This document shows, piece by piece, positions 47,274 through 63,801 of a stretch of 64,000 bases of DNA. Location of the stretch: IMG/VR virus record IMGVR_UViG_3300033066_001625, positions 1 to 64,000 of that record. The stretch is one strand, 5' to 3'. The position numbers and the translations under genes are program-made. The stretch's first letter is position 1. The number at the start of each line of letters is the position of its first letter. The notes under the pieces are model-generated. The model worked only from the letters and a program-made list of their open reading frames with translations. It made no database searches and was not told the DNA's origin. The DNA is from a virus. Its lineage: Duplodnaviria > Caudoviricetes.

Positions 47274-47510
47274 ATGATTTACGGAAAAGTCAGAGAAAAG
47301 ATGGAAAAAGTATTGCCATACTTTTTGTTCGCTTTTAATCCAAATGACAAGACACTCATTATGGTTTATACGGAAAGTTTTAACAAAATAACTCCGAACA
47401 CCAAGCCATTTGTTGTGCAAAATACGGTAAACAATACTTTCGAGTATGAACAAGAAACTTATTCTGAGGATGAGTTTTGCAGATTGCTTGATCTATTAGT
47501 TTTTACCTGA
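47274..47510 (+). CDS. Small hypothetical protein, 'KAF-tail' family (degenerate: ...RLLDLLVFT*)
   Basis: ATG 47274 preferred over TTG 47229; the C-terminus resembles four other small ORFs. Confidence 0.6.
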   Translation: MIYGKVREKMEKVLPYFLFAFNPNDKTLIMVYTESFNKITPNTKPFVVQNTVNNTFEYEQETYSEDEFCRLLDLLVFT

Positions 47511-47526
47511 TGATATAGGATTCGAC

Positions 47527-48663
47527 ATGAAAGTATGTTGGTTTGGATTTTTAGGCAAAAATCATAGTTGGTCTATTGTTGCCCAAAATATCTCTAGAGA
47601 ATTGATCAGATTGGGGCATGAGGTAGATTTGTTTTCTACCAATGGTTTAGAACACTTTCCAGAAGACCTAAAACCATATCTCAAAGGTTCTATAGAAGAA
47701 TCTACACAAGTCACAGCAAACAATTATCAATCTATAATCGGCGGCAAATTAGACACCAAGTATGATATGCAACTATCATATACTGCTTTGAAGAATTTTC
47801 CTCACTATTTTGTTAGAGGAAACAAAAACAGATTTGGTATTTGGAATTACGAAACCACCGTATTACCAACAGCTTTTGCCAAGTGCTATAAAGCTGTGGA
47901 TAAAGTATTGCCCTCTTCTTCTTTTTCGAAGAAGATATTCATGGACAATGGTATTCCTGCCGAAAATCAAGTGATGATACCACATGGTATTCATTTGGAT
48001 AGATTTCAAAACCTATCTAAATATCCTCTTAAAACTAAAAAGAAGTACAAGATACTTGCCAATATCGCTCAGCCGCATCTGAGAAAAAACATTCCTAATT
48101 TGTTGAAAACCTACGGTAAGGCATTCACTAAAAATGATGACGTATGTTTAGTTTTGAAGATTTCAAAACGCAATAGTAAAACTTCTTTCGAAGTCAATTT
48201 TGATGAGATTTACAAAGACTTCAAAACTAAATTCAAAAACCACGGAGATATAGAGATTTTGGATAAGTTCATTGTAGATATTGAATGTCTTTACAATGCT
48301 TGTGATATGGTAATTACTATGGCTAATAGTGAGTGTTTTTGGATGCCAGGTTTAGAGGGATTTGCTGCCAACAAAATTGTGGTTGCACCTCGTTACGGCG
48401 GGCAGCTGGATTACATGAACGATGACAATTCTATTTTGATTGGTGGAAAAGAGATTCGCGCCGATATTAAGATGCAATATTGGGAGCCATCTGCTTATGC
48501 AAAAGTATTTGCTCCGGATGTTGATGAGTGTGCAGCCAAATTGAAAGATGTTATCGCTAACTATGATGATTATCTAGCTAAGTTTTCTCCCAAGATGCAA
48601 GAAATATTGCCTCAGTATACTTGGAGAAATGTCACTGAGAGAATTGTTTCTTTGTGTGAGTGA
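47527..48663 (+). CDS. Glycosyltransferase, GT-B fold, family 4-like
   Basis: RKNIPNLL motif, E-x7-E (SECFWMPGLEG), PHGIHLDRF, YTWRNV C-terminus. Confidence 0.88.
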   Translation: MKVCWFGFLGKNHSWSIVAQNISRELIRLGHEVDLFSTNGLEHFPEDLKPYLKGSIEESTQVTANNYQSIIGGKLDTKYDMQLSYTALKNFPHYFVRGNKNRFGIWNYETTVLPTAFAKCYKAVDKVLPSSSFSKKIFMDNGIPAENQVMIPHGIHLDRFQNLSKYPLKTKKKYKILANIAQPHLRKNIPNLLKTYGKAFTKNDDVCLVLKISKRNSKTSFEVNFDEIYKDFKTKFKNHGDIEILDKFIVDIECLYNACDMVITMANSECFWMPGLEGFAANKIVVAPRYGGQLDYMNDDNSILIGGKEIRADIKMQYWEPSAYAKVFAPDVDECAAKLKDVIANYDDYLAKFSPKMQEILPQYTWRNVTERIVSLCE

Positions 48664-48666
48664 ATT

Positions 48667-48885
48667 ATGGAACCTATTAGACAAGAATTGGTTGTTTTGC
48701 CGGCTGATCCTGGTGTAGTTCATTTGGCAGCACATCGTCGACTTGTGATTACATCTGATGGCAAATTCCGCGTCAAGAAAAATACTGGCAAAATAGGGTT
48801 TACAGTCAGAGAAACAATAGGCATTGCAGTTATCAATACCAGGGGTGTTTCAAAGGGCAACAAATCTGTTATTATTGGTACATAA
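48667..48885 (+). CDS. Hypothetical protein
   Basis: 72-aa ORF filling the gap between GT4 and Fpg/Nei. Confidence 0.55.
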   Translation: MEPIRQELVVLPADPGVVHLAAHRRLVITSDGKFRVKKNTGKIGFTVRETIGIAVINTRGVSKGNKSVIIGT

Positions 48886-48915
48886 ATTTCATATTCATAA
48901 TTTGGAGATTATATT

Positions 48916-49779
48916 ATGCCTGAAGGCGTTGAAGTAAAGATTAGTGGTGAACTAATAAAACCATTAGTTCAAAACAAATATGTAAGTAAAGTTCGTTTTG
49001 ATGATGATAGTAGATATGGATACAATAAACCAGAGGCAGAAGGTCATAAAGAGTTTCTAGATTCTTTTAGGAAATTAGAAAATATTGGATATGTTGTTTC
49101 ACCTTTGAAGATTATTGATGTCAAATCAAAAGGCAAATTCATGTACTGGCAATTTGATAATGGCTGGTACATGTTTTGTACTTTTGGGATGACGGGGCAA
49201 TGGTCTCCAAATCCTGGCAAACATATTTGTATGACCATGAAACTATATGATGATGAAGGTAAGTTTAGCGAAGTCTATTTCAATGACCCTAGACACTTCG
49301 GTTCTATTAAATTTGTTTCATCTGAGAAAGAACTCAAAGAAAAGCTTGGAGAATTTGGTTGGGATCCTTTACAAACTCCATTAGATAAGTGGTCAGATTG
49401 GATAAAATCCGAATTGAAAAAATCAAAGAAGCCAATTGGACAAGTTCTATTGGATCAATCTGTCTTTGCAGGAGTTGGCAATTATATTAGAGCGGAAGCT
49501 TTGTATGATGCCAAGATTTCTCCTTGGAAGTTGTGCAAAAACATGTCAAGTACAGAAGTTGATACTTTGTGTGAGTCAATCATAAAAGTTATGAAAGAAT
49601 CTTACGATCATCAGGGCGCAACGCTTCTCACTTACAAAGATGCTTATGGCAATGAAGGCAAGTATTCTTCCTGTTTTAAGGTTTATGGTAAAACCAAAGA
49701 TCCATTGGGCAATTCCATAAAATCTGAATCGACACCAGAAGGAAGAACTATTCATTGGTGTCCCGCAATCCAAAAATAA
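48916..49779 (+). CDS. Fpg/Nei family DNA glycosylase/AP lyase, zincless-finger type
   Basis: N-terminal catalytic PE (MPEGVEV), KGKF, DPRHFG, H2TH GVGNYIRAEALY; C-terminal GRTIHWCPAIQK without four zinc-binding Cys. Confidence 0.93.
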   Translation: MPEGVEVKISGELIKPLVQNKYVSKVRFDDDSRYGYNKPEAEGHKEFLDSFRKLENIGYVVSPLKIIDVKSKGKFMYWQFDNGWYMFCTFGMTGQWSPNPGKHICMTMKLYDDEGKFSEVYFNDPRHFGSIKFVSSEKELKEKLGEFGWDPLQTPLDKWSDWIKSELKKSKKPIGQVLLDQSVFAGVGNYIRAEALYDAKISPWKLCKNMSSTEVDTLCESIIKVMKESYDHQGATLLTYKDAYGNEGKYSSCFKVYGKTKDPLGNSIKSESTPEGRTIHWCPAIQK

Positions 49780-49829
49780 TCTTTAATCACCAGATATAGA
49801 GGTAGCGAACTTTCATGAAGAGATGAAAT

Positions 49830-50795
49830 ATGTCGCTATCAACTAAGATATTAATTGCCCTCGGAGTAATCCTAGTCATTCTTGGACTAGGATTCATCAT
49901 CTATAAACAAAACGAAATCTCAACTCGTCAACAAGCCATTGAAACACAAATTATTCGGCAAAAAGAATTGGCTGACAATATCATGCGTTCGCAAAGTGGT
50001 TATGCCACCAAAGATGATATTGAAAAATTTATCAAAGACAATGGTGTAAATCTAAAAGCTATTCAAGATGATTTGAATAAGCTACACGCTTCTATTAGTG
50101 CAGCCAATACAGTAGTAGTGATGAGTTCTGGACAAACAGCAGGTAATTTGCCTAGTAGTTCAACTGGTGTAGTTAATCCCACTCCTACTACCGTAGATAC
50201 TTATGGCTATTTGAAAAATGCACAATTACTAAATCTTCACGAAGACTTTTCGGGAACTCCTGTTCCGATTGGTCAAGTGGGATTTTCCGCATGGCAACAA
50301 AATCCATGGAATATTAACATCTCTCCAAGAGCATATAAAGTAACAAATGTTATTGGAACAGATGACAATCAAAGAACATATGTGTATAATAAATTCATAG
50401 TAACCGTTGACAACAAGGACTATGAGGTTAAGATAGCTAAGGCAGAAACTAAGCAAGAGTATCCAACAGCTAAATGGAGTTGGTGGAATCCTAGATTGTT
50501 TATTGGTGCCGATGGTGGAATTACAGTTAGTAAAGTTAAGGGAGAGTTTACCCCTAGCCTTAACTTAGGTATTATGTCTTATGGTCAGTACAAGACTTCA
50601 CCTGACTTCTCCGTACTACAAGTAGGTGTGGGTATAGGAGTTGTATCACAAAGACCACAATTCATTCTTACTCCTGCGGCTTATAATATTGGTAAACATA
50701 TTCCATTGATGAATAATACTTACATAGCACCTTCTGTGCAAGTTGGTACAGACGGTAGTGTTTCAATTATGGCGGGATTAAGGGTAGGACTATAA
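49830..50795 (+). CDS. Membrane-anchored protein with coiled coil and C-terminal amphipathic beta-strands (spanin-like candidate)
   Basis: N-terminal TM helix ILIALGVILVILGLGFIIY, coiled coil, then alternating-pattern strands ending in AGLRVGL. Confidence 0.5.
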   Translation: MSLSTKILIALGVILVILGLGFIIYKQNEISTRQQAIETQIIRQKELADNIMRSQSGYATKDDIEKFIKDNGVNLKAIQDDLNKLHASISAANTVVVMSSGQTAGNLPSSSTGVVNPTPTTVDTYGYLKNAQLLNLHEDFSGTPVPIGQVGFSAWQQNPWNINISPRAYKVTNVIGTDDNQRTYVYNKFIVTVDNKDYEVKIAKAETKQEYPTAKWSWWNPRLFIGADGGITVSKVKGEFTPSLNLGIMSYGQYKTSPDFSVLQVGVGIGVVSQRPQFILTPAAYNIGKHIPLMNNTYIAPSVQVGTDGSVSIMAGLRVGL

Positions 50796-50800
50796 CAAAT

Positions 50801-50998
50801 ATGGAACTTGGAATTTACAGACATTACAAAGGAAAACTATACGAAGTAACCTCAGTTGCTAAACATACTGAGACTTTGGAAGAAATGGTTGTTTATAGGG
50901 ATCTCAAAGACCAATATTGGGTTCGACCTTTGTCAATGTTTTTAGAACAAGTGGAGGTTGACGGTTCTTGGATTCCTAGATTTGAAAAGGCAATATGA
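50801..50998 (+). CDS. DUF1653 domain protein
   Basis: GIYRHYKG..YEV..VAKHTET.E.MVVYR.L...WVRP..MF...V..PRF is the DUF1653 pattern. Confidence 0.88.
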   Translation: MELGIYRHYKGKLYEVTSVAKHTETLEEMVVYRDLKDQYWVRPLSMFLEQVEVDGSWIPRFEKAI

Positions 50999-51954
50999 GT
51001 AGGAAAAAAGTCTTAATAACTGGTTCTTGTGGTTTCATTTTTGGCAATTTTGTTAGAAAAGCCATCTATGAGAAACACCCATATCAATTCGTCAGCTTAG
51101 ATAGGGTAAGTGCCAATGCCATTAATTCTATGTATTGGAATAAGAATCATACTTTCCATGTCGCTGACGTAAGAGATCAACATATCATAGATGTCATCTT
51201 TCAATTCGAGAAGCCTGATATTGTGATTCATGGGGCAGCCGAAACTTTTATAGATTCATCTTTAAATGACCCCAATTCTTTCGTCACTTCTAATGTTTTG
51301 GGAACACAAGTTATTATCAATGCTTGTTTGAAACACAAAGTAGAGAGATTAATCTATGTGTCTACAGATAGTGTTTATGGGCACTTAGAAAGTGAACATG
51401 ATCCTCTCTGGACCGAGGACTCGCCCTTAAATCCAAGAAATTCTTACGCTGTTACCAAAGCCGCCGGTGAGATGTTGGTTAAAGCTGCCCACCAATCTCA
51501 TGGTCTAATTTATAACATTACTAGAAGTTCCAGTAACTATGGTCCACGCCAAACGCCGGAGAAATTGATTCCCAAGGCGATTAAGAGCATTCTACATGGG
51601 GAGAAGATTCCTATCTATGGTCAAGGATTACAGATAAGGGATTGGACGCATGTATTTGACAATTGTTCAGCAATTTTGACGGTTCTGAATAAAGGGGATC
51701 CCAACCAAGTCTATAATATTTCTGCCAATCAAGAATTGACTAATCTAGAGGTTATTCAAAAGGTTTGTAATGCGGTAGAAAAAGGTCATGAATTGATTTC
51801 ATTTGTGGAAGATCCTCGTGTGGGGCATGACTTTAGACATGGCGCAGACTCTTCAAAGATCAGGTCTTTAGGTTGGGAGCCCAAATACAAGTTTAAGGAT
51901 GGCGTTATAGAGACCGTCGGATGGTATTTGAATAATCAATGGTTTTTGAAGTGA
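50995..51954 (+). CDS. rfbB: dTDP-glucose 4,6-dehydratase-like extended SDR (RmlB/RfbB family, divergent active site)
   Basis: TGSCGFI, HGAAET..D.S...P..F..SNV.GT, STDSVYG, YAVTK, NYGP..TPEKLIP, GLQIRDW, DPRVGHD. Confidence 0.8.
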   Translation: MSRKKVLITGSCGFIFGNFVRKAIYEKHPYQFVSLDRVSANAINSMYWNKNHTFHVADVRDQHIIDVIFQFEKPDIVIHGAAETFIDSSLNDPNSFVTSNVLGTQVIINACLKHKVERLIYVSTDSVYGHLESEHDPLWTEDSPLNPRNSYAVTKAAGEMLVKAAHQSHGLIYNITRSSSNYGPRQTPEKLIPKAIKSILHGEKIPIYGQGLQIRDWTHVFDNCSAILTVLNKGDPNQVYNISANQELTNLEVIQKVCNAVEKGHELISFVEDPRVGHDFRHGADSSKIRSLGWEPKYKFKDGVIETVGWYLNNQWFLK

Positions 51955-51961
51955 GGGAAAT

Positions 51962-52219
51962 ATGTCATTAAAATCTGCTGTAGAACTATTACAAATAGCG
52001 CATAATAGTATAGAAATCAAGAATGGTCCTTTCGGTAAAGGTAAGCATGCTTTAACGTTGGAAAATGGCACTTTGGTACTCACAATTAACACAGGTTATG
52101 AGTTCAAAAATTTCCTATTAGATGAGGCAGACCTGGTAAAAGATCCGCAAGAGTTAATTCTGGAAATCGTGGGATTTTTGGAGAGGGAAACGGCAGACCT
52201 TTTGAAAGAGATGAATTGA
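51962..52219 (+). CDS. Hypothetical protein
   Basis: 85-aa ORF with GAGGG RBS. Confidence 0.65.
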   Translation: MSLKSAVELLQIAHNSIEIKNGPFGKGKHALTLENGTLVLTINTGYEFKNFLLDEADLVKDPQELILEIVGFLERETADLLKEMN

Positions 52220-52220
52220 A

Positions 52221-53588
52221 ATGTCAGTTAAACATTCTATACAACAAGACAAACCAGAAGAAGTGATTGATGATATGACAGATAACAACGAAGAAAAAGA
52301 ACAACAAGATAAATTAGCCGCACTTAAAGCAAAAAGTCAAGCAAGACAACAAGAAAATCAAGCAAAAGCCGAGGCAAAGATGGCATCTAAGATTGTTTCA
52401 AAGAAGGAAAGAAGTCTAGCACTAGGAGTATTAGGTTCCGGTCAAGCTGGTTCAAGAATTGCAGAAGCGTTTTACAAACTTGGATATGATTCAATAGTAG
52501 TAAACACTGCTATGCAGGATCTTAAGTTTATTGATATTCCAGATTCTAATAAGTTATTGTTAGAGTATGGTTTGGGTGGTGCAGCCAAGGAAATTGAAAT
52601 TGGAAAAGCCGCCGCCGAAGCTCATCGTGGTGAGATTTTGCAATTGGTCAACGATAAACTAAGCTCTTCTCAAGTCAATCTATTGTGCTTGAGTTTGGGC
52701 GGTGGTTCTGGTGCAGGTTCCTGCGAAACTTTGGTTGAGCTATTGTCAGAATTAGGCAAGCCATTGATAGTTATTACCGTTTTACCAATGGACACGGAAG
52801 ATGCTCAAACTAAAAGCAACGCTTTGGAAACTTTATCTAAATTGGCTAAGATGGCACAATCTAAGAAAGTAAACAACTTGATTGTGGTAGATAATGCCAA
52901 AATAGAAACCATTTATCATCATGTTAGCCAAATGGATTTCTATAGTGTAGCCAACAAAGCCATTGTAGATCCAATTGATATGTTTAACACTCTTTCCTCT
53001 ATGCCATCTTCAACCAAGGCATTAGATCCTATGGAGTGGTCAAAGCTCTTTATTGATGGTGAAGGTTTAAGTGTCTATGGAGAATTCTCTGTAGAAAACT
53101 ATCAAGAAGATACTGCCATTGCTGAGGCTGTTATCAACAATCTTTCCGGCAATCTTTTGGCAGAAGGATTTGATCTCAAGCAATCAAAGTATGTTGGATT
53201 CATTATTGCCGCCAATAAGAATGTTTGGTCCAAAATTCCAGCATCTAGTGTTAACTACGCCAGCAGCATGATCAATGATTTATGTGGAAATCCAAAGGGA
53301 GTTTTCAAAGGAATGTATGTCATTGATTCTCCAGAAGATACAGTTAAAGTTTATTCTATGTTTTCTGGATTGGGATTACCTTCTGTCAGAGTTGAACAAC
53401 TTAAGAGTGAGACCAAAGAATTGCAATCCAAGGTTAAGACCAAGGATGAATCCAGAAATCTAACTCTACAGTTGGATACTGGAACCAATGACACTGTGTC
53501 TGCCGCTCAGAAAATCAAGGAAAAAATTGCTGCTAAGTCCTCTGCATTTGGCAAGCTTATGGGTGGCGTGGTAGACAGAAGAAAGTGA
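52221..53588 (+). CDS. Tubulin/FtsZ-superfamily GTPase (TubZ/PhuZ-like)
   Basis: GVLGSGQAGSRIA, VNTAMQD, GGAAKE...G, signature GGGSGAG, IVVDN, T7-like ALDPME; charged N-terminal extension and C-terminal tail. Confidence 0.9.
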   Translation: MSVKHSIQQDKPEEVIDDMTDNNEEKEQQDKLAALKAKSQARQQENQAKAEAKMASKIVSKKERSLALGVLGSGQAGSRIAEAFYKLGYDSIVVNTAMQDLKFIDIPDSNKLLLEYGLGGAAKEIEIGKAAAEAHRGEILQLVNDKLSSSQVNLLCLSLGGGSGAGSCETLVELLSELGKPLIVITVLPMDTEDAQTKSNALETLSKLAKMAQSKKVNNLIVVDNAKIETIYHHVSQMDFYSVANKAIVDPIDMFNTLSSMPSSTKALDPMEWSKLFIDGEGLSVYGEFSVENYQEDTAIAEAVINNLSGNLLAEGFDLKQSKYVGFIIAANKNVWSKIPASSVNYASSMINDLCGNPKGVFKGMYVIDSPEDTVKVYSMFSGLGLPSVRVEQLKSETKELQSKVKTKDESRNLTLQLDTGTNDTVSAAQKIKEKIAAKSSAFGKLMGGVVDRRK

Positions 53589-53656
53589 TATCTGCCGCAG
53601 AATAATTGATATTTTGTCGAGATGTGGGTACTAGTTATATATTGACTAGTACCCAT

Positions 53657-55174
53657 ATGACTAAGATAATCATCAAAGGCAACAACTCGCAAATTACCGA
53701 AGAATCTGATGTCAATCACATTCTCGCATTAGATAAACATTTGTCATTCAAGGTCCAAGGGGCAGAGCATACTGCTGCCTACAGAGGATTTTTTAACAAG
53801 GGTGGCGATTTCGTAAAGTGGGATGGCATGAAAAAACTGCTGACTCCCACTTTGCTTTTTCCATCTGGACTATTAGAAAGAGTTAAGGCGTTCTATGACG
53901 AAGCAGGAAAAACTTATGAAGTCGTGGATAAGCGCCCCGCCAAATCCATTGGAACTGAGAGACACATATTAGAAAATTTGAAGAAATTGGAGAAGGAGCC
54001 GCGCCCCTATCAGATGGAAATTCTCAAGGTCATTGACAACAATGATCGAGGAATTATTAAGGTAGCAACGGGTGGAGGTAAGAGCCTGATCGCCGCCCTT
54101 ATTGCCGCAAAATTGGGCAAGAAGACCATAATCTATGTAATTGGTAAAGATTTGCTTTATCAATTTTACGACTTTTTCTCTGAAGTGTTTGACGAAGAAA
54201 TTGGCATCATTGGTGATGGTAAATGTATCATCAAAGATATCAATATCGCCAGCATTTGGTCTGTGGGTCAAGCCATTGGTTTAGACAAAAAAGATATTCT
54301 GTTGGATGAAAATGGAGACGAAAAAGAAGTTGTAAAAAGCAAGTACATTGAAATCAATAAGATGATGAAAGAAGCTAAAGTTCACATCATTGATGAGTGT
54401 CACATGTCGGCTTGCGATACCATTCAACAGATTTTCAAAACATCTAAAGCAGAGCACATTTATGGATTAAGCGGTTCGCCTTGGAGAGATGATGGTGCTG
54501 ATTTACTGATCGAATCAATATTAGGTAAGTACATTGTTAATATCTCTGCTTCACAATTGATTAAGCAAGGGTTCCTAGCACAACCTTTAATCAGATTTAG
54601 AGTTGTGCCACCCTATCCATTGTTCTTGGACAAGGTTTATCCTTCTGTGTACAAGAAGTATGTGGTTGAGAATGAAGTAAGAAATGGTTTGGTTTTAGAT
54701 GCTGCCAAAACCATGGTTGAGAAGGGATACCAGACATTGGTTCTTTTCAATAGCTTGAAACATGGTAAGATTTTATATGAGTTGTTTCAAGAGCATATGA
54801 ATTGTGCGCTTCTTGATGGTAATAATGATCAAGAAGAAAGAGATAAAGTCAAGAAAGACTTAATGGAACACAAGATAGATTGTGTTTTAGCATCTAAGAT
54901 TTTTGATATTGGCGTTGATATACCCAGCTTATCTGGCTTGGTGATAGCTTGTGGCGGTAAATCTACAGTCAAAGCTTTACAAAGAGTAGGTAGAGTTATT
55001 AGAAAGTATCCTGGAAAAAAGTTTTCTGTCATTATAGATTTCGTAGACCAGGCTCATTTTTTGCAAGAACATTCTAAGATTAGATACAAAATCTATTCAT
55101 CCGAAGATGGCTTTGATGTTCAGCTTCCCAGCTCTGTAAAGTGGAGAAAAGGCAAATTGTCTAGCGAACAATGA
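53657..55174 (+). CDS. Superfamily 2 DNA helicase (UvsW/XPB-like)
   Basis: RPYQ, TGGGKS, IIDECH, GLSGSP, FDIGVDIP, LQRVGRVIR. ATG 53657. Confidence 0.92.
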   Translation: MTKIIIKGNNSQITEESDVNHILALDKHLSFKVQGAEHTAAYRGFFNKGGDFVKWDGMKKLLTPTLLFPSGLLERVKAFYDEAGKTYEVVDKRPAKSIGTERHILENLKKLEKEPRPYQMEILKVIDNNDRGIIKVATGGGKSLIAALIAAKLGKKTIIYVIGKDLLYQFYDFFSEVFDEEIGIIGDGKCIIKDINIASIWSVGQAIGLDKKDILLDENGDEKEVVKSKYIEINKMMKEAKVHIIDECHMSACDTIQQIFKTSKAEHIYGLSGSPWRDDGADLLIESILGKYIVNISASQLIKQGFLAQPLIRFRVVPPYPLFLDKVYPSVYKKYVVENEVRNGLVLDAAKTMVEKGYQTLVLFNSLKHGKILYELFQEHMNCALLDGNNDQEERDKVKKDLMEHKIDCVLASKIFDIGVDIPSLSGLVIACGGKSTVKALQRVGRVIRKYPGKKFSVIIDFVDQAHFLQEHSKIRYKIYSSEDGFDVQLPSSVKWRKGKLSSEQ

Positions 55175-55184
55175 TTGGTGAAAT

Positions 55185-55790
55185 ATGGTTAAGAAAAAAG
55201 AAGATGTAACTGGCGGTGAATTAACAGATGTTCCTAACGAACAATACAAGAAGTTTTTTGATAAATTCGCCGAAGTGGATACTCTAAGTCCGGAGAATTG
55301 GAAACCAGTTCATATACTAGGATATTTCTGTAAGAAGTATCAAGAGACTTATGATAAGAAATATCAGTTTAAGTTTAATAGTCCATCTCCCATGAAGTGT
55401 TTTGAAGTCTTTCAAGTAAAGAAACTGGCGATGCATTTGACTGCTAATCCAACTCTGTTGAAAGAATACATAGATTGGGTGTATGATAACAAAGTAGTCA
55501 AAGCTAAAAGAAGGTTAACTTCTATTTCTTTTATGACTAATGAAGGGATTGTAAATGAATACAAATTCAACGTACTTCTTGCGGGCAAAAGAAATCTCAA
55601 TGTCGATAGGTCAACACCTTTACCCGATAAGTATAAGACCATTTTTTCAGGAGCCGGCGTATCAATTAGCACTTATGGTGATTTGGCGTTTGTTTCTCAA
55701 ATGAGCGACATGTCTGATGAACTCAAAACAGCTTTCTCTACTATAGAGGAAATGGGTTTTGATAAGGAAGTCTTGGGAAGAATTGTATGA
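55185..55790 (+). CDS. Hypothetical protein, probably replication-associated
   Basis: 201-aa ORF between the SF2 helicase and the loader/DnaB genes; function from context only. Confidence 0.7.
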   Translation: MVKKKEDVTGGELTDVPNEQYKKFFDKFAEVDTLSPENWKPVHILGYFCKKYQETYDKKYQFKFNSPSPMKCFEVFQVKKLAMHLTANPTLLKEYIDWVYDNKVVKAKRRLTSISFMTNEGIVNEYKFNVLLAGKRNLNVDRSTPLPDKYKTIFSGAGVSISTYGDLAFVSQMSDMSDELKTAFSTIEEMGFDKEVLGRIV

Positions 55791-56128
55791 TCTTAGAATC
55801 TTATGCCAAACATGCAAAAAGATTTAGTGGCATGTCACCTCATCAAATACTACCCTCTTTGAATATTAAATGGGGGATGGCGACCACCAAACTAGAAACA
55901 ATAGAAGAAGATGTTAAGAGTTACATACAAAGTAATATGAAATTCTTAACAACTTTTATGGATTTCCCCGATGATTTAAATCAAAACCTCGATAAGATTA
56001 TCTGCTTCTATATTAATGATTTATTAATATCAGATGATGTGATTTGTTGTTTTGTATACACTGAGGAAACTCTTGATGATTTGCTTGTGAAAATGGAAAG
56101 AATAGTAAACATAAAGGCATTCATATGA
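55787..56128 (+). CDS. Small hypothetical protein, 'KAF-tail' family (...ERIVNIKAFI*)
   Basis: 113-aa ORF with ATGA overlaps at both ends. Confidence 0.7.
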   Translation: MILESYAKHAKRFSGMSPHQILPSLNIKWGMATTKLETIEEDVKSYIQSNMKFLTTFMDFPDDLNQNLDKIICFYINDLLISDDVICCFVYTEETLDDLLVKMERIVNIKAFI

Positions 56129-56445
56129 TTGTTTACAATAAAGAAGTAAGTGGGGCATTAGAAAAATTCTTAGCTGATAATAACTTAAAACAACCTGATG
56201 TATCAATGCTTTTTTCTTTTACTCATATTGAAGCAACTGGAGTATTCAAGGCTGATTTTCAAGAAGAAAATAGATATTATGATGCTCGAATATTTTTTAT
56301 CGTGCCCGAACAAGTTGCTGGCACATGCTTTCTACTTCCTTCTGAATACAATAGTGATATGAATGTAATGTATTTCATTACTCTAAGCCCAGAAGAAATA
56401 ATGAAGTTTTTGGATAAGTTTCCAAAGATAAAGGTGTTTTTATGA
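56125..56445 (+). CDS. Small hypothetical protein, 'KAF-tail' family (...DKFPKIKVFL*)
   Basis: 106-aa ORF with ATGA overlaps at both ends. Confidence 0.7.
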   Translation: MIVYNKEVSGALEKFLADNNLKQPDVSMLFSFTHIEATGVFKADFQEENRYYDARIFFIVPEQVAGTCFLLPSEYNSDMNVMYFITLSPEEIMKFLDKFPKIKVFL

Positions 56446-56846
56446 CTCCACAAAAAGGACAGCATATTAGATGTTTATTGCGCAACAATTTGATAATTGA
56501 TGGAATTGTAGAATCGTGGTCAGATGCCAAATCCGTATTACGATCTTTAGATGATACATCTATTTCTGTTATCCAACACTCGGCGCAGGATATAGTGGTG
56601 ATCAAAATTATACTGAAAGAGCCTGTCAAAGTAAAAATTGATTTATCCACTCAATTTGAAGAGGAATTAGCCAAGCCAAGTAATGATGAATTAAGAGTCA
56701 AAAACATGGCGGAGCTGAAAACACTTTTGAATGAACAAGAAAAGAAAATCATTGCGGAGAAGCTCAAGGATCATCATGTTAATGGTGATGTAAAGAAAGT
56801 GACCTATGGACAACCTGGATTTTTCAAGAAGCCGCGCCCTCAATAA
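56442..56846 (+). CDS. Hypothetical protein, possible Sm/Hfq-like N-terminal fold plus coiled coil
   Basis: IRCLLRNNLIIDGIVESWSD..SVL pattern resembles the Sm1 motif. Confidence 0.5.
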   Translation: MTPQKGQHIRCLLRNNLIIDGIVESWSDAKSVLRSLDDTSISVIQHSAQDIVVIKIILKEPVKVKIDLSTQFEEELAKPSNDELRVKNMAELKTLLNEQEKKIIAEKLKDHHVNGDVKKVTYGQPGFFKKPRPQ

Positions 56847-57510
56847 CGTTCCACAAAAAAAGCTACAAGAAAAGCTGAATGAGATTAATAATTCTGAATT
56901 GGATTTATCTTCCAAGAATATTAAACTGATTGCTATCAATAGATATGCCGAAAGCAATATTCCCATTGAATATTGGGGATTGAAAATGGAGAGAGATTTT
57001 CATGGAGATCCCAGATTACTAACCAAGTACAATGAATATATTAGTGACTTGAAAAGTTCATACATCAATGGCAATTCCATTTGTTTTGCCGGAGGTCACG
57101 GTTTAGGTAAGACTATGACCGTATGTTGTATTCTCAAAAAAGCATGTGGCAAGAACTATAGTTGTTTGTATACTACGCTTAGTGACATTGTAAATGTATT
57201 AACTCAATCTTCTGGAGAAGACAAGTATCTTTCCAGAAGAGAGTTGGCTTTAGTAGATTTCTTAGTGATTGACGAGTTTGATTCTAGATTCATGCCTTCC
57301 GAAAACGCAGCAGATTTATATGCCAGAAGTTTGGAGGGAGTTTTTAGAACGCGCAGTCAAAACAAACTACCTACCTTGATGTGTACAAATAGTCCTAATA
57401 TTGTGGAGTCATTCAATGGACCTTTGAAGCAAAGCATAGATAGTTTGATGAAGGGTTATACAAAAACATTTCCGGTCTTGGGCGAAGATTTTAGAAAGAA
57501 GAGAGCATGA
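56806..57510 (+). CDS. DnaC/IstB-like AAA+ helicase loader
   Basis: RYAESNIP..Y, Walker A GGHGLGKT, Walker B LVIDEF, TLMCTN; upstream of DnaB. Confidence 0.88.
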   Translation: MDNLDFSRSRALNNVPQKKLQEKLNEINNSELDLSSKNIKLIAINRYAESNIPIEYWGLKMERDFHGDPRLLTKYNEYISDLKSSYINGNSICFAGGHGLGKTMTVCCILKKACGKNYSCLYTTLSDIVNVLTQSSGEDKYLSRRELALVDFLVIDEFDSRFMPSENAADLYARSLEGVFRTRSQNKLPTLMCTNSPNIVESFNGPLKQSIDSLMKGYTKTFPVLGEDFRKKRA

Positions 57511-58916
57511 ATTACAATTTAGATTTGGTTATCTTAAAAACCCTTATCACCAACAAAAAACATGCCTTGGATTTTGCTAATGAGTGCGATCCCAAGTTGT
57601 TTTCTCCTGATGTATGGAACTTTGCTAATCTTGTTGTAGGATATGTTAAAACCTACAAAGAATTACCTACGCTAAGAGTAATTGTAGAGAAGTTAGAAAA
57701 AGGATCCAATGACAGACTAATTGAAAGCGTCAAAAAAGTCTGGTCATCTCTAGATGGCGTGGAGTACAACGACAAAGAATATAAACACGATCTGGAGAAA
57801 ATCAAAAAACGTTTTGCTGAGAAACAGATCATAGCTGTTAAAGAGAAGTTGGCGTCTATTGAGCCCGGTTCAATGGACATTAACCGCGCAGTTGGTGAAC
57901 TTCAAAAAACAGTACAATCTATCAAAAGCCTTAATCAAACTAGAGCTTATGAAAGAAAAACTCTAAAGGAAGCTGTACCTATCTTTAGAGAAGAATATAA
58001 TGCCAAGATGGATGATCCTCATTTTGATCGTGGTATCAAAACAGGATATTCCTATTTTGACCATGTAACCGATGGTTTGAGACCTGGTGAGTTGGTACTG
58101 ATTGGTGGTGAATCTGGTGGTGGTAAGTCCATGTTACTGATGAACATGGCAGTTCAGCTTTGGATGCAAGAGAATACTATCTATACAGATGAAGCCAATT
58201 TTACTGGCGGAAACAGTGTATTGTATTTTTCGCTAGAAATGCCTTTTAAGCCCTGTTTGAATCGTGTTCTAGCCAGGATGTCATCTGCCCCTTCAAAATT
58301 GATTAGAAACGCCAAATTGAACCCGGAAGAGGCTAGTAAGCTAAAGAGATCTCTCAAGTTTATTACCAAGTATCCTCATCAATTTGAAATAGTAGATATT
58401 CCTAGAGGGGCTACTATGGAAAATTTGGAATTAATATATGAGGAAGCGAAGGTTCATTACGACCCCAAGATTGTGGTTATCGACTATCTAGGTTTAATGG
58501 ATTATGAGAGTGCCGATTTGGATGACTGGTTGAAATTAGGAAAAATTGCCGAAAAGATTCACGAGTTTGCCAGAGTTCATAACCTTATTGTATTAAGCGC
58601 TGTTCAGTTAAACAGAGCAAAAGGTGGTAAAGAAATGGAAGATAAGATTGGTTTACACAGAATTGGTCGTTCTGCTTTGATTATGCAGAATGCTAACATT
58701 GCTATTCAAATTGAAACCCGCCCAAATGAGAAACAATATCCAGATATGTATTATCATTTGATCAAGAATAGAGATGGTGAATTAGGTAAGGGCAAACTTA
58801 TCAAGAATTTAGCTTGCGGTACTTTGCTAGATGATAAGATTGACGATGATGATACAGAATTCTACGACAGAGACCCAGATGATATTTCTGAGAAATTAGA
58901 TTTGTTAGATTTATGA
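57507..58916 (+). CDS. dnaB: Replicative DNA helicase, DnaB family
   Basis: TGY..FD...GLRPGELVLIGGESGGGKS, FSLEM, VVIDYL, AVQLNR, IKNRDG. Confidence 0.93.
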   Translation: MNYNLDLVILKTLITNKKHALDFANECDPKLFSPDVWNFANLVVGYVKTYKELPTLRVIVEKLEKGSNDRLIESVKKVWSSLDGVEYNDKEYKHDLEKIKKRFAEKQIIAVKEKLASIEPGSMDINRAVGELQKTVQSIKSLNQTRAYERKTLKEAVPIFREEYNAKMDDPHFDRGIKTGYSYFDHVTDGLRPGELVLIGGESGGGKSMLLMNMAVQLWMQENTIYTDEANFTGGNSVLYFSLEMPFKPCLNRVLARMSSAPSKLIRNAKLNPEEASKLKRSLKFITKYPHQFEIVDIPRGATMENLELIYEEAKVHYDPKIVVIDYLGLMDYESADLDDWLKLGKIAEKIHEFARVHNLIVLSAVQLNRAKGGKEMEDKIGLHRIGRSALIMQNANIAIQIETRPNEKQYPDMYYHLIKNRDGELGKGKLIKNLACGTLLDDKIDDDDTEFYDRDPDDISEKLDLLDL

Positions 58917-58930
58917 TGTAAGGCAAATGT

Positions 58931-59275
58931 ATGAACGAAATAGTATGTGTATCATTTTTTGATATGATTGAGAAATACGTTAATCATCTACGAATAGAAT
59001 CTGTTGATCATAAATTCTTATCAAATGATCAGTATAAAAGATTATTGATTGGTTTTAGTTGCTGTGATGAACTTTATCTATTTAGATTAACCGATCTTAG
59101 GCGAAGAAAAATGTTTCCAGAGAATACTGAAGTCAGTGAACATTGTAGGGCATTTCTAGAAAGCCAAGCAACCTCTTCTGAAAAAAGAGTAGAGTTAGCT
59201 AACACAGTTGATCTGTGTGTTAAAACCTCCGTAAAAGATCTAGAAAGATATTTTGAATTGAAAGCATTTTGGTGA
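58931..59275 (+). CDS. Small hypothetical protein, 'KAF-tail' family (...ERYFELKAFW*)
   Basis: 114-aa ORF with AAGG RBS. Confidence 0.7.
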   Translation: MNEIVCVSFFDMIEKYVNHLRIESVDHKFLSNDQYKRLLIGFSCCDELYLFRLTDLRRRKMFPENTEVSEHCRAFLESQATSSEKRVELANTVDLCVKTSVKDLERYFELKAFW

Positions 59276-59282
59276 GGGAAAA

Positions 59283-59465
59283 ATGAAACCTGATCAGGAA
59301 ATAATAGCAGAAGCAGTTCGCATAGAATACGAAGAAAAAACTGGTCAGTTATTTATTGTATTTGAGGTGACAAACGAAAAGCTAAAACAAGATATAAAGA
59401 AGAACTGGACCAAAGATATTGAATATAAGATTGTAGATAAACATTTGGTAAAAAACGATGAGTGA
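59283..59465 (+). CDS. Hypothetical protein
   Basis: 60-aa ORF with GAGGG RBS. Confidence 0.65.
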   Translation: MKPDQEIIAEAVRIEYEEKTGQLFIVFEVTNEKLKQDIKKNWTKDIEYKIVDKHLVKNDE

Positions 59466-59781
59466 AACATACAAATGCAATTTATATACAGATCTTTGTG
59501 AGTTATTTTTTGATATGAAAATGACAGCACAGGGCATTATATTACCTTGTGATGATTCTTTGAATTTATCATTTGATTGGGTAAGTGATGAAAATCATAA
59601 TTTTTACAGCATCAAGATTAAAGATGCAAATAAGTGTTTGAATATAGACTCAATGTTTTCTTCTTTAGAAAAAGAAGAGTTAAGAAGATATTTTGCTAAA
59701 CCTAGAATATATGAAAATACTTGCAAAATATTACAATTGCCTATCTTTAATAGAATGGCTAATTTAAAGTGTTTTATTTAA
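59458..59781 (+). CDS. Small hypothetical protein, 'KAF-tail' family (...NRMANLKCFI*)
   Basis: 107-aa ORF, very AT-rich. Confidence 0.7.
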   Translation: MSETYKCNLYTDLCELFFDMKMTAQGIILPCDDSLNLSFDWVSDENHNFYSIKIKDANKCLNIDSMFSSLEKEELRRYFAKPRIYENTCKILQLPIFNRMANLKCFI

Positions 59782-59793
59782 GGAGTGTTAGTT

Positions 59794-60102
59794 ATGCCAA
59801 CATATGAACATAAATGTCAATCATTAGAGTGCGGATATGAATGGGAAGATGAATATTCTATTAAACAAGATCCTCCTAAGGTCTGCCCTAAATGCCAAAA
59901 AGAAACTGCTAAGAGATTAGTTAGTGGTGGCAGCGGTAGAGGCACAGTAGAACTTGGCGCCAATGAACTTATAGCTAAGTTAAAAGATGACGCTAAAACT
60001 CTACAAAAAGATGCCGCTAAAAATGAAAAGGTATATGCTAACCTTTTGGGAGAAGATAGGTATCAATCCATGCAAACAAGAATGGATAATAGAAAGCGCT
60101 GA
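59794..60102 (+). CDS. FmdB-family zinc-ribbon protein
   Basis: MPTYEHKC...CG..WE......CPKC; AAGGAG RBS before ATG 59794. Confidence 0.85.
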   Translation: MPTYEHKCQSLECGYEWEDEYSIKQDPPKVCPKCQKETAKRLVSGGSGRGTVELGANELIAKLKDDAKTLQKDAAKNEKVYANLLGEDRYQSMQTRMDNRKR

Positions 60103-60201: not shown

Positions 60202-60393
60202 ATGCCCACATATTTGTACAAATGTGAAAAGCATGGAGAATTCGAGATTGAACACTCCATTAAAGATAAACTAGAAACTTGTCCTAAGTGTGAAGAGGAA
60301 GGATCTGATCCACATACTGTAGTTAGACTTATTTGTAATAGTGGTGGGTTTATCCTAAACGGATCAGGTTGGGCACGAGACAATTATAGTTGA
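60202..60393 (+). CDS. FmdB-family zinc-ribbon protein (second copy)
   Basis: MPTYLYKCEKHGEFE...CPKC...GFILNGSGW; GGGAG RBS. Confidence 0.85.
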   Translation: MPTYLYKCEKHGEFEIEHSIKDKLETCPKCEEEGSDPHTVVRLICNSGGFILNGSGWARDNYS

Positions 60394-60604: not shown

Positions 60605-61228
60605 ATGTTAACAGAACAAGAAGCACAAGACTTAATGATCAAATTGATAGATTTGAGATCTAAATCTAAGACTGATCCTCAAATTGAGGCAGAGCTTAAA
60701 AAACATGAGAAGATTTGTATTCAGAATTTCAAGTATTTAGTTACTATGAAAACTGGTCGCTATAAAGCATTCAGCAATTATGATGATTTGAATCAAGAAG
60801 GTTTTGAGGCTTTGATTAAAGCCATGAATAATTACAACCCAAAAAAGGGTTCTTTCTTCTGGTGGGCGCACAAATATATTGACACTCGTATTTCTAGAAG
60901 TGCCAATTTGCATACTACCATTAGATATCCTTTGAAGGTTGCTAAGCAAAATACTCCACACAAAGAGGCTATCATGCCTACTTTGGTGGAAGAAAGATAT
61001 TGTCCAGATAAAGAACTGGAAGAGTCTCAATTGAATAATGCTATTCAAGGTGCTTTTTCTGTGTTAACAGATGAGCAAAGAGAGATTATCAATTTGGCAT
61101 ATGGTTTTGATGGAGATAAACCAATGTCTATTAATAAGATATGCAAAAAGTTAAGCATATCTAGGCTGAGTTGCATTAAAACAATCAACAGCGCGCTCGC
61201 CATCATGAAAAACAATATTGCAGTATAA
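60605..61228 (+). CDS. Phage RNA polymerase sigma factor (sigma70 family, regions 2 and 4)
   Basis: DDLNQEGFEALIKAMNNYNPKKGSFFWWA (region 2); LTDEQREIINLAYG...SINKICKKLSISR (region 4 HTH). Confidence 0.9.
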   Translation: MLTEQEAQDLMIKLIDLRSKSKTDPQIEAELKKHEKICIQNFKYLVTMKTGRYKAFSNYDDLNQEGFEALIKAMNNYNPKKGSFFWWAHKYIDTRISRSANLHTTIRYPLKVAKQNTPHKEAIMPTLVEERYCPDKELEESQLNNAIQGAFSVLTDEQREIINLAYGFDGDKPMSINKICKKLSISRLSCIKTINSALAIMKNNIAV

Positions 61229-61278: not shown

Positions 61279-63801
61279 ATGCAGGGATACACTTACGCTC
61301 AGGTTTTAGAAAAGTCCACAGAATACTTTAATGGAGATGATTTTGCTGCCAAAGTATTCGTCGACAAATATGCGTTGCAGACTACAGAAGGTGAATATTT
61401 AGAACTAACCCCTGTTGACATGCATCATCGTTTGGCAAAAGAGTTTGCTAGGATTGAGAAGAAGTATCCTAATCCTTTATCAGAAGAACGTATTTTTAGC
61501 CTAATCGATCGTTTTCAATACATAGTTCCACAGGGCAGCCCTATGTCTGCTATTGGAAATCCCTATCAACTACAAAGTTTATCCAATTGCTTTGTGGTTC
61601 AGGGGGTTTACTCTAACAAACTAGACTCCTATGGCGGAATTATGTTAGCTGATCAAGAGCTAGCTCAAATCATGAAACGTCGTGGCGGGGTTGGTCTTGA
61701 TATTTCTGGTATTAGACCCAAGGACACACTAACTGCTAATGCCGCTAAAACTACTGATGGTATTGGTGTATTCATGGAAAGGTTTAGTAATACCTGCCGT
61801 GAAGTAGCTCAAAATGGTAGACGTGGCGCCGAAATGATCACCATTTCTGTAAACCATCCAGAAATTGAAACGTTTATCAATATCAAAAGAAACTTGAAGA
61901 AGGTCACTGGAGCCAATATTTCTATTCGTTTCAACGATCAATTCATGAAAGCCGCTAAGAAGAATGAAAAGTACACCCTTCGTTGGCCAGTTGATGCAAC
62001 ACCCGAAAACGCCAAAATCACTAAGATAGTCGATGCTAAAAACATTTGGGACCAAGTGATCGATGCCGCCTGGACTTCTGCCGAACCAGGCGTTTTGTTT
62101 TGGGATAATGTTAAATCTACTACGCCAGCCGATATTTATGAAGAAGAAGGATACGGCTCTATCTCCACCAATCCTTGTGGAGAAATCGTATTGTCAGCTT
62201 ATGATGCTTGTCGTTTGTTAGTATTGAATTTATCCAGTTATGTAACAAATCCATTTACAGCTGATGCTAAATTCGATTTTGATTTGTTTCATGAACATAC
62301 AATTATTGCGCAGAGATTGATGGATGATATTATTGATCTAGAAATTGAATGCATTGATCGTATTATTGAAAAGGTCAAATCAGATCCTGAGCCCGAAGAG
62401 GCAAAACAAACTGAATTGAATCTTTGGAGAAAGATTCGTGCTGCCAATATTGGTGGTCGTAGAACAGGTTTGGGTATTACTGCCCTAGGCGATTGCATTG
62501 CTATGTTGGGTGTTAGATATGGTTCTGCAGAATCTATTGAATTAACCCGCAAGATTTATCGTGCTTTGGCAGTTGGCGCTCATACTTCATCATGTGTAAT
62601 GGCAAAAGAAAGAGGAGCATTTCCAACTTTCAGTTATTCTAAAGAGAAGGATCATGCTTACCTAAAGAGCATTATGACTGATGCTGGTAAATCAGTTGGT
62701 ACAATGTGGAAAAAGTATGGTCGTCGCAATATTGCCTTGACTACCACAGCCCCAACTGGTTCTGTCTCTACATTAACTCAAACAACATCTGGTATTGAGC
62801 CGGCTTATCTTTTGTCTTATGTAAGACGTAAGAAGATAAATCCATCGGATAAAAACGCTAGAGTGGATTTTGTGGATACCCTGGGTGATAGGTGGCAAGA
62901 ATTCACCATTTACCATCATGGTGTAAAGAAATGGATGGATGTTACTGGCGAATCAGATATTGCCAAATCGCCATATTGGAAAGCTACTTCTAATGATGTA
63001 GATTGGGTTGCATCTGTAGATCTACAAGCAGCCGCACAACAATCTGTTGATCATAGCATTAGCAAGACTTGTAACTTGCCAAATGATGCAACAAGAGATA
63101 TTGTTTCTCAAGTTTATATGAGGGCTTGGGAGTCTGGTTGCAAAGGATTTACAGTTTACCGTGATGGTTGTCGTACTGGCGTATTACTTAGCGAAGAATC
63201 TGCCAAGAAGGTTAAAACTCCTGGCGAGAGACCTGCTGACGTAGACTATGTTATGGCTCCCAAGAGACCTATAGAATTGCCTTGTGACATTAAGAAAGCC
63301 AAAGTTAATGGAGAGGCTTGGACTATATTTGTGGGATTGTTAAATGGTAAACCTTATGAAATCTTTGGTGGTCTTTCCAAGTTTTTGGATATTCCTAATA
63401 AATACAAGACTGGAAAAATCCTTAAGAATGGGAAAAACTCTGATGGATTAACTACTTACAATTTAGTGATTGGAGAAAATTCACCAGACGATAAGATGGT
63501 CATTAAAGATATTGCCAATATCTTTGAGAATAAGACTCATGAAGCTTTCACTAGAATGATTTCTTTGAATCTTAGACATGGCACTCCAATACAATATGTA
63601 GTGGAGCAATTAACCAAAGATAAATATGCAGAAATGACATCATTTTCTAAAGTTGTAGCCAGAGTATTGAAGTCCTACATCAAGGATGGAAGTAAAGCTG
63701 CTTCTGAGAAAGTTTGTGTTTCCTGCAATGCAGAGGGAACTTTGGTGTATCAAGAAGGCTGTATAACTTGTACTTCTTGTAAGTATAGTAAGTGTGGATA
63801 A
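61279..63801 (+). CDS. nrdJ: Class II (adenosylcobalamin-dependent) ribonucleotide reductase
   Basis: PQGSP, SLSNC, TNPCGE, RRTGLG, APTGS, DHSISKTCN, GCKGFTVYRDG; C-terminal TSCPD-like domain and C..C/C..C ribbon; no beta subunit adjacent. Confidence 0.92.
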   Translation: MQGYTYAQVLEKSTEYFNGDDFAAKVFVDKYALQTTEGEYLELTPVDMHHRLAKEFARIEKKYPNPLSEERIFSLIDRFQYIVPQGSPMSAIGNPYQLQSLSNCFVVQGVYSNKLDSYGGIMLADQELAQIMKRRGGVGLDISGIRPKDTLTANAAKTTDGIGVFMERFSNTCREVAQNGRRGAEMITISVNHPEIETFINIKRNLKKVTGANISIRFNDQFMKAAKKNEKYTLRWPVDATPENAKITKIVDAKNIWDQVIDAAWTSAEPGVLFWDNVKSTTPADIYEEEGYGSISTNPCGEIVLSAYDACRLLVLNLSSYVTNPFTADAKFDFDLFHEHTIIAQRLMDDIIDLEIECIDRIIEKVKSDPEPEEAKQTELNLWRKIRAANIGGRRTGLGITALGDCIAMLGVRYGSAESIELTRKIYRALAVGAHTSSCVMAKERGAFPTFSYSKEKDHAYLKSIMTDAGKSVGTMWKKYGRRNIALTTTAPTGSVSTLTQTTSGIEPAYLLSYVRRKKINPSDKNARVDFVDTLGDRWQEFTIYHHGVKKWMDVTGESDIAKSPYWKATSNDVDWVASVDLQAAAQQSVDHSISKTCNLPNDATRDIVSQVYMRAWESGCKGFTVYRDGCRTGVLLSEESAKKVKTPGERPADVDYVMAPKRPIELPCDIKKAKVNGEAWTIFVGLLNGKPYEIFGGLSKFLDIPNKYKTGKILKNGKNSDGLTTYNLVIGENSPDDKMVIKDIANIFENKTHEAFTRMISLNLRHGTPIQYVVEQLTKDKYAEMTSFSKVVARVLKSYIKDGSKAASEKVCVSCNAEGTLVYQEGCITCTSCKYSKCG

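Follow-up and report, generated by a model that had tools for sequence, protein, structure and literature searches.

Several small open reading frames (ORFs) in a stretch of Caudoviricetes DNA end in nearly the same residues, which raises the question of whether a constant ending on otherwise different proteins acts as a signal and, if it does, what might read it. The stretch analyzed here, called the window, comprises positions 1 to 64,000 of IMG/VR record IMGVR_UViG_3300033066_001625; it covers the first 64 kb of a viral contig that is 89.9 kb long and has an estimated completeness of 21%. Complete relatives of this contig measure 430 to 452 kb, one of them carrying terminal repeats. Three complete relatives, G001, G002, and G003, were used, the last with 452 kb, 754 greedily called genes, and 141,981 residues. 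Comparison of the DNA with 50,697 phage records gave no match, and the nearest cultured phages by terminase show at most 25.5% identity. The tagged ORFs encode small accessory proteins that evolve fast and are confined to a single clade of uncultured phages. Their common ending is a nine-residue basic/hydrophobic tail, [KR]-phi-x-x-phi-[KR]-x-F-phi-stop, where phi is a hydrophobic residue and position -1 is the last residue before the stop. At least seven members lie on the 89.9-kb contig, four in the window and three just beyond it, and the relatives carry a dozen or more per genome.

We searched for the tail with a hidden Markov model (HMM) of 22 columns built from 19 tails and not anchored to stops. 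On the contig, seven ORFs matched at an expectation value (E) of ≤7e-7, each match finishing at the stop, and the next match reached only E=0.08. The short pattern [LIVM]K[AVCL]F occurred 34 times in the six frames of the contig, and 6 of these occurrences fell exactly at positions -5 to -2 from the stop of real ORFs of 106 to 160 aa; the motif was not enriched at the ends of noncoding frames in the same six-frame scan. In G003, 11 of the 41 occurrences of the strict motif were C-terminal, versus 0.16 expected (Poisson, 5e-17), and shuffling the last five columns among the G003 genes gave a mean of 0.39 terminal motifs with a maximum of 3. Because of these terminal counts, HMM matches, and enrichment over both expectation and shuffles, AT-rich codon bias does not account for the motif, a chance origin is excluded, and codon bias, which the original prediction had named as a possible refutation, does not refute it.

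The terminal position also holds for weaker matches. Eleven of the 11 weaker six-frame matches examined in the three complete relatives had zero residues before the stop; they lay on both strands and were scattered over the genomes. Confinement of the tails to the surroundings of DnaB was considered and rejected, since the weaker matches elsewhere are likewise all terminal. Among 1.84 billion representative proteins, 30 matched (E≤1e-3), all of them 80 to 151 aa long; 29 of these matches ended at the last residue and one a residue short, and the window member 56125-56445 was recovered again as P0031. No member above about 160 aa was found in the six-frame scans of the relatives, the G003 genes, or the 1.84 billion proteins, the sizes spanning about 60 to 160 aa.

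The original prediction had listed five ORFs in the window with this ending. All five and their endings are exactly as it described, and four share the tail as [IL]-K-[AVC]-F-x-stop (Table 1). The fifth, 47274-47510, was not counted in the family because the tail HMM matched it at E=27; judged by this profile it is not a member, or is at most a K-less variant. The K-less ending LLVFL is also found on an unrelated 126-aa ORF in a related locus (L004). The consensus proposed for the five, [RK]-x-x-[NDEK]-[LI]-K-[AVC]-F-x, was too short; a K/R at -9 is present in all 19 aligned tails, and the hydrophobic positions -12, -8, -5, and -1 match one helical face. In the relatives, tagged genes also occur in groups far from the replication module, with three in 1.4 kb at 139.3 to 140.7 kb of G001 (L024) and two in tandem at 423.6 to 425.0 kb of G002 (L016); these tandem groups are mostly of the ...KAFW type. 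Translation of the member at 67608-67928 of our contig probably begins at the ATG overlapping the stop of the preceding gene.

Selection on the tail and its Shine-Dalgarno overlay

Conservation of the ending appeared, as had been claimed from differing codons, to act at the protein level, and this is confirmed. Positions -5, -3, and -1 retain their residue class with freely varying codons, the hydrophobic position -5 alone using at least nine different ones, and the tail is retained in orthologues whose bodies are only 25 to 28% identical. Identity over the last 9 aa is 58% among members of a cluster, versus 31% over their bodies; from one cluster to another, it is 59% over the last 5 aa. The ratio of nonsynonymous to synonymous substitution rates (dN/dS) between orthologues ranges from 0.04 to 0.32, and the tagged ORFs are therefore real genes under purifying selection. 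In the window, 55787-56128 has orthologues in L004, L005, and L006 (dN/dS 0.06 to 0.32), 58931-59275 shows a dN/dS of 0.18 versus its L004 orthologue, and 59458-59781 shows 0.20; the L007 orthologue of the latter is 49% identical and ends ELKSFL. The L006 orthologue of 58931-59275 ends LVAFW, the K having been lost.

The tail might instead be a by-product of nucleotide constraints, either AT-rich codon bias or the need for a Shine-Dalgarno sequence and an ATGA junction serving the downstream gene. Such junctions, in which the next start lies inside the stop, are indeed frequent, occurring in 19 of 44 distinct members versus about 20% of the contig's other genes. The codon of Lys(-4) is A[AG]G in 11 of the 19 overlapping members versus 3 of the 25 others (Fisher, 0.0025), and together with the following G it yields AAGG 5 to 7 nucleotides (nt) before the next ATG. 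However, the 25 members that have no overlap keep the tail, with Lys(-4) mostly encoded by AAA, and a nucleotide artefact was rejected as the cause of the motif on this basis. The free variation of the codons at -5, -3, and -1 under a constant residue class, a conservation that reaches 20 residues upstream in the tail alignment, and the unenriched ends of noncoding frames all speak against it as well. We consider this explanation next to negligible: nucleotide constraint is refuted as the sole cause and is retained only as an additional influence on codon choice, the codon at Lys(-4) being tuned to the Shine-Dalgarno role and the amino acid being kept regardless.

Both situations are seen in the window. 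The stop of 55787-56128 overlaps the start of 56125-56445, the stop of which overlaps the start of a conserved 134-aa gene at 56442. At 56114-56127 and 56431-56444, Lys(-4) is written as AAG/AGG and not as the commoner AAA, and the tail doubles as the ribosome-binding site of the downstream gene. Neither of the other two members is coupled in this way; 58931-59275 has no ATGA overlap and uses AAA for Lys(-4), and 59458-59781 ends with TAA without overlapping the next start.

Bodies of the tagged proteins and their last helix

The sequences in hand form 11 clusters, the bodies of which were compared in 55 pairs with hhalign after cutting the last 20 residues, a comparison of limited sensitivity because the alignments are thin. 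Clusters 1 and 6 were linked (P 1.8e-4, 86 columns), and clusters 1 and 5 marginally so (P 0.005); the other 53 of 55 pairs showed no body similarity with the tails removed, which on thin alignments is a weak negative. The description of the bodies as dissimilar thus holds for most of them. Against Pfam-A and PHROGs, seven members of the contig and nine of G003 gave nothing better than E of about 0.004, all below the cutoffs. The sole profile match to a PDB sequence, over 26 residues at E=5.5e-4, was judged to be due to chance.

AlphaFold structures were predicted for two of the 11 clusters and compared by element order and weak structural neighbors. The model of 55787-56128 is an alpha/beta domain with the order E-H-H-E-H-H-E-E-H (E, strand; H, helix), and that of 67608-67928 is H-H-E-loop-E-H, in which two N-terminal helices and a strand are followed by a 35-residue low-confidence stretch and then by a second strand and the last helix. 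Neither had a clear structural relative in Foldseek searches against PDB and BFVD or in VIA-align searches against 48,161 chains (best Z, 4.3 and 4.4), and the weak structural neighbors differ in kind between the two. An IF-2B lead for 55787-56128 (ESM Atlas, 0.87) was weak and was disregarded.

In the ungapped alignment of 19 tails, F(-2) is invariant, K/R(-4) nearly so, and positions -12, -8, -5, and -1 are hydrophobic. By helical-wheel arithmetic at 100 degrees per residue, these four positions lie in an arc of about 40 degrees, with the two basic positions on either side of the resulting stripe. The tail is predicted to be helical in both models, at residues 96 to 112 of 55787-56128 (mean predicted local distance difference test [pLDDT], 89.7, the last three residues dropping to 67) and at residues 89 to 105 of 67608-67928 (pLDDT, 90 to 96). 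A hydrophobic strand and an S/T/D-x-x-E/D cap precede the helix in most clusters, as read by eye. In all members, the last three residues are small-F-hydrophobic at a free C-terminus. The largest cluster, 26 sequences including 67252-67611 and 67608-67928, has invariant residues in its N-terminal helices as well as in the tail helix, suggesting that these pack together.

One subfamily revealed where part of its body comes from. The 67608-type subgroup contains a 17-residue near copy of the P-loop strand of the terminase large subunit, including its unusual lysine-less G-x-T-T form, which corresponds to residues 70 to 86 of the G003 terminase (272728-274614, identified by tblastn to annotated terminases; hhalign P 7e-6). 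Terminase is the best non-family match of the subgroup profile in the whole G003 proteome (E 0.004), eight members independently match the same terminase segment, and the ESM Atlas look-alikes of this subgroup include clusters annotated Terminase_6N and GpA_ATPase. The P-loop copy sits in the low-confidence stretch of the 67608-67928 model. At least one body is therefore of separate origin, which favors different bodies carrying one tail. The N-terminal helices of 67608-67928 may also resemble the terminase N-terminus, as judged by eye. In G003, at 384147-384481 (L025), a copy of the terminase-piece type is split in two frames, with the N-terminal part at 384147-384311 and the P-loop and tail in the frame ending at 384481, which suggests a frameshift or a decaying gene.

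Searches of the G003 proteome with the body profiles gave no convincing copy of a larger phage protein beyond the terminase piece. A weak collinear resemblance (32% over 84 aa) was seen between cluster 8 (L005:7614-8000 and L006:8550-8942) and the N-terminus of a 257-aa G003 protein (268352-269125), with a BLAST E of 0.024 in a database of 754 proteins and an HMM E of 0.27. By eye, the 257-aa protein has a GG-x-x-RD nucleotidyltransferase-like motif, which is not kept in the small proteins.

Proposed recognition of the tail and competing explanations

In bacteria and phages, single readers are known that act on many unrelated proteins through a short terminal signal. We tentatively favor, at somewhat less than even confidence, a reading in which the tail is a recognition motif anchored at the C-terminus of diversified small accessory proteins and read by one common partner. 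The proteins would share only a C-terminal unit of a strand and an amphipathic helix, the last nine residues, [KR]-phi-x-x-phi-[KR]-small-F-phi-COOH, would form the motif at the free C-terminus, and a single partner would read it, so that varied small proteins are handled as one group. The strict ending, the conserved basic residues, and the unlike bodies speak for such a signal; the near-invariant K/R at -4 and -9, in particular, are not obviously needed by a purely structural helix.

The main rival holds that the proteins are one paralogous family that diverged after duplication, with the last strand and helix as its folding core and with no separate signal or reader. The uniformly small sizes, the tandem and local clusters, the weak links among some clusters that outlast removal of the tail, and the hydrophobic strand and S/T/D cap ahead of the helix in most clusters (by eye) are all in keeping with this. 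Descent from one family is nevertheless difficult to reconcile with the 53 of 55 cluster pairs lacking body similarity, with two models that differ in topology and weak neighbors, and with a subfamily whose body derives from the terminase N-terminus; in addition, it does not obviously explain the basic residues at -4 and -9, nor why all members seen end exactly one residue past F. The original prediction had itself named full-length homologues of one domain with a conserved last helix as a refutation, and we regard common descent without a signal as a serious rival, only slightly less likely than the recognition motif.

Several observations weigh against a dedicated recognition motif. The tail is the end of a last helix of about 17 residues that is packed in the fold and has the highest pLDDT (90 to 96) of both models; because AlphaFold places it there, its conservation could be mainly structural. 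The family-wide profile aligns at full length to most database matches, and restriction of the motif to proteins of 60 to 160 aa, often in local tandem groups, is the pattern expected from duplication of one small family. In a divergent relative (NCBI assembly), the position stays terminal and the residues relax to LQSFC, VKRFS, and IRVYL. All tail-bearing large contigs found from ClpP, from the family alignment, and with a degenerate DNA pattern are close relatives of one another. Finally, the tail is unlike any described degron, such as ...LAA, and no ClpX-type unfoldase was recognized in the relatives, where the AAA_2 matches look MoxR-like by eye; G003 has two such MoxR-like ATPases, at 179942-181078 and 186224-187330. 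The picture of a constant tail appended to variable bodies, with which the original prediction had started, thus needs qualifying: the tail is strictly C-terminal and most bodies are dissimilar, but it is predicted to be a packed helix and not a loose appendage, and it is found only on proteins of about 60 to 160 aa, which would not be expected of a general cargo tag.

Should the tail have a reader, the most likely specific mechanism would be degradation by, or delivery to, an AAA+ protease, a minority bet that we consider unlikely in itself. The best candidate reader would be the ClpP pair of the three complete relatives together with an AAA+ ATPase. Each of these genomes carries a pair of neighboring ClpP genes (E 1e-46 to 1e-50), at 217479-218653 in G003 (L049), about 310.3 to 311.5 kb in G001, and about 66.6 to 67.7 kb in G002, which score about 166 bits against cellular ClpP versus 48 bits against a head-maturation protease model. 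The pair is preceded by a DksA/TraR-type zinc-finger protein, and 8 kb downstream of it in G003 lies a 438-aa PAN/Cdc48/FtsH-like AAA+ ATPase (226052-227368). In G001 and G003, one ClpP frame each has a TGA inside the match, and a topoisomerase I gene is found near the ClpP pair in the relatives. ClpP has been described in some jumbo phages, where it is assumed to act on host proteins and where its substrates are not named (PMC7824862). A more elaborate version, in which the tail is a portable C-terminal address handing a library of small early effectors, some built from pieces of essential proteins such as the terminase P-loop, to the ClpP1/ClpP2 and AAA+ machine of the complete relatives, is unlikely too.

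The ssrA degron, ending in ...LAA, and the MuA-type basic-plus-nonpolar "C-motif 2" (RRKKAI), which is read by ClpX, are known signals of this kind and, together with the N-terminal capsid targeting sequence of T4, are the closest known concepts. Like the tail, the two degrons are short signals at the extreme C-terminus with a nonpolar end and a free carboxylate, can sit on unrelated proteins, and in the MuA type are preceded by basic residues; moreover, the complete relatives of the contig carry ClpP genes. Unlike them, the tail reads phi-K-x-F-phi and not LAA or RRKKAI, is predicted to be helical and packed and not a free extension, and comes without a recognized ClpX-type partner in the relatives. 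Among the functions suggested earlier, a degron alone is backed by circumstantial evidence, namely the two ClpP genes and the AAA+ ATPase of the relatives; the tail is unlike known degrons in sequence. A PDZ-type ligand, also suggested earlier, formally matches the class II pattern (phi-x-phi-COOH), with a small hydrophobic residue at -3 and a hydrophobic last residue; no PDZ_2 or S41 domain that could serve as its reader was found in the three complete relatives, and this reading is left without support.

A membrane-targeting amphipathic helix like the C-termini of MinD and FtsA, which would bring the proteins to the inner face of the host membrane, is improbable. The composition of the tail resembles those membrane-targeting sequences: both are C-terminal, basic, aromatic, amphipathic, and of similar length, and the hydrophobic stripe of the tail is flanked by Lys/Arg and rich in Phe, Trp, and Leu. 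However, membrane helices tolerate variation in sequence and length, whereas here the residues, F(-2) above all, and the distance to the terminus are fixed, and AlphaFold packs the helix on the body with a pLDDT above 90 instead of leaving it free. Somewhat further down in probability, and quite unlikely, we place mimicry of a host hub-binding peptide, by which the proteins would dock on a hub or compete at it, either through the FtsZ C-terminal peptide or through a clamp-binding PIP-like motif. The conserved FtsZ peptide, phi-P-x-F-phi, is read by FtsA, ZipA, SepF, and MinC. The phi-x-x-F-phi spacing and nearby basic residues of the tail match the core spacing of these motifs, the motifs are docking peptides shared by many partners of one hub, and many members lie among replication genes. 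This spacing is generic, however, and the hallmark residues are missing, the Asp/Pro of the FtsZ peptide as well as the Gln of the clamp motif. The direction is also reversed, with many proteins carrying one tail; such motifs usually lie in disordered linkers and not at the end of a packed helix; and no phage clamp (DnaN or gp45) was detected in the three complete relatives.

Capsid packaging and injection were among the functions suggested originally, and a constant tail on variable bodies, together with the TubZ-like tubulin gene of the window, would suit a cargo signal for packaging, for ejection through the tail, or for import into a phage compartment. In T4, the capsid targeting sequence of IPI, IPII, IPIII, and Alt is similarly a short constant peptide on polymorphic, small, nonessential proteins that vary between related phages. 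That signal, though, sits at the N-terminus, undergoes cleavage by the prohead protease, and marks late virion proteins, whereas the tail is C-terminal and its genes lie in replication and nonstructural regions. The scan of the contig with the tail HMM found no member within the structural block at 1 to 47 kb, and because the genes lie among replication and other nonstructural genes, packaging or injection is unlikely. In addition, 19 of the 44 members are translationally coupled to the following gene through ATGA, the conserved 134-aa core gene being among the genes so coupled to the window pair, and the tail is never found on larger proteins, whereas compartments import enzymes of all sizes. 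A cargo signal of any of these types is very improbable.

A few, narrow literature searches found no description of such tails, and we are aware of no phage for which a dozen or more small proteins per genome have been described as sharing a signal found strictly at the C-terminus. A tail that is read by a partner would define a class of coregulated proteins in huge phages, where numerous small ORFs are otherwise hard to interpret, and would provide a direct experimental handle, as a peptide for pulldowns and reporter fusions. If, more specifically, ClpP and an AAA+ ATPase do the reading, the whole class would have a built-in timer or a common handling route. If it is merely the conserved folding helix of one paralogous family, the proteins are an ordinary new ORFan family.

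Genomic surroundings

The coordinates of the family members, their core tails, and neighboring features are collected in Table 1. Other neighbors include an IstB/DnaC-like loader, DnaB, and zinc-ribbon proteins and, further on, PhoH/PIN, an M24 peptidase, and a LAGLIDADG endonuclease. The core genes are syntenic across 11 related loci, with tagged genes in slots that vary in content among them; the slot between a 201-aa and the 134-aa gene, for instance, holds from zero to three tagged genes, and in four relatives the surroundings of DnaB lack them altogether. The GC content of the four window members is 0.26 to 0.31, versus 0.37 for the contig.

Table 1. Positions of tail-bearing ORFs, core tails, and other features on the contig
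Feature	Position	Strand	Remarks
Non-member ORF	47274/47229-47510	+	ends LLVFT; tail HMM E=27
TubZ-like tubulin	52221-53588		followed by the UvsW-like helicase
UvsW-like helicase	53606-55174		
Tail-family member, 113 aa	55787-56128	+	ends NIKAFI; tail HMM E=7e-7, match terminal
Nine-residue core tail of 55787-56128	56099-56125	+	AAGG at 56114-56117, 7 nt ahead of next ATG (56125), Shine-Dalgarno overlay
Tail-family member, 106 aa	56125-56445	+	ends KIKVFL; tail HMM E=4.5e-7, match terminal
Nine-residue core tail of 56125-56445	56416-56442	+	AAGGTG at 56431-56436, ahead of ATG 56442
Tail-family member, 114 aa	58931-59275	+	ends ELKAFW; directly 3' of DnaB; tail HMM E=6.3e-7
Nine-residue core tail of 58931-59275	59246-59272	+	from tail alignment
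Tail-family member, 107 aa	59458-59781	+	ends NLKCFI; tail HMM E=1.4e-7
Nine-residue core tail of 59458-59781	59752-59778	+	from tail alignment
ORF read by eye as sigma factor	60605-61228		
ORF read by eye as ribonucleotide reductase	61279-63801		
Further member beyond the window	67252-67611		same contig
Further member beyond the window	67608-67928		same contig
Further member beyond the window	68294-68776		same contig

Some of these surroundings show features of their own. Two adjoining paralogous Zn_ribbon_8 proteins (59785-60102 and 60202-60393) lie between a tagged gene and the putative sigma factor. The LAGLIDADG endonuclease (contig 68824-69657; L002:4824-5657) is found directly 3' of the tagged gene at 68294-68776, and in the relatives (L004 to L012), HNH- and GIY-YIG-like ORFs, as read by eye, share variable slots with tagged genes. 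Two of the related loci, L006 and L010, have a shortened ribonucleotide reductase gene with an extra ORF of about 320 aa alongside it.

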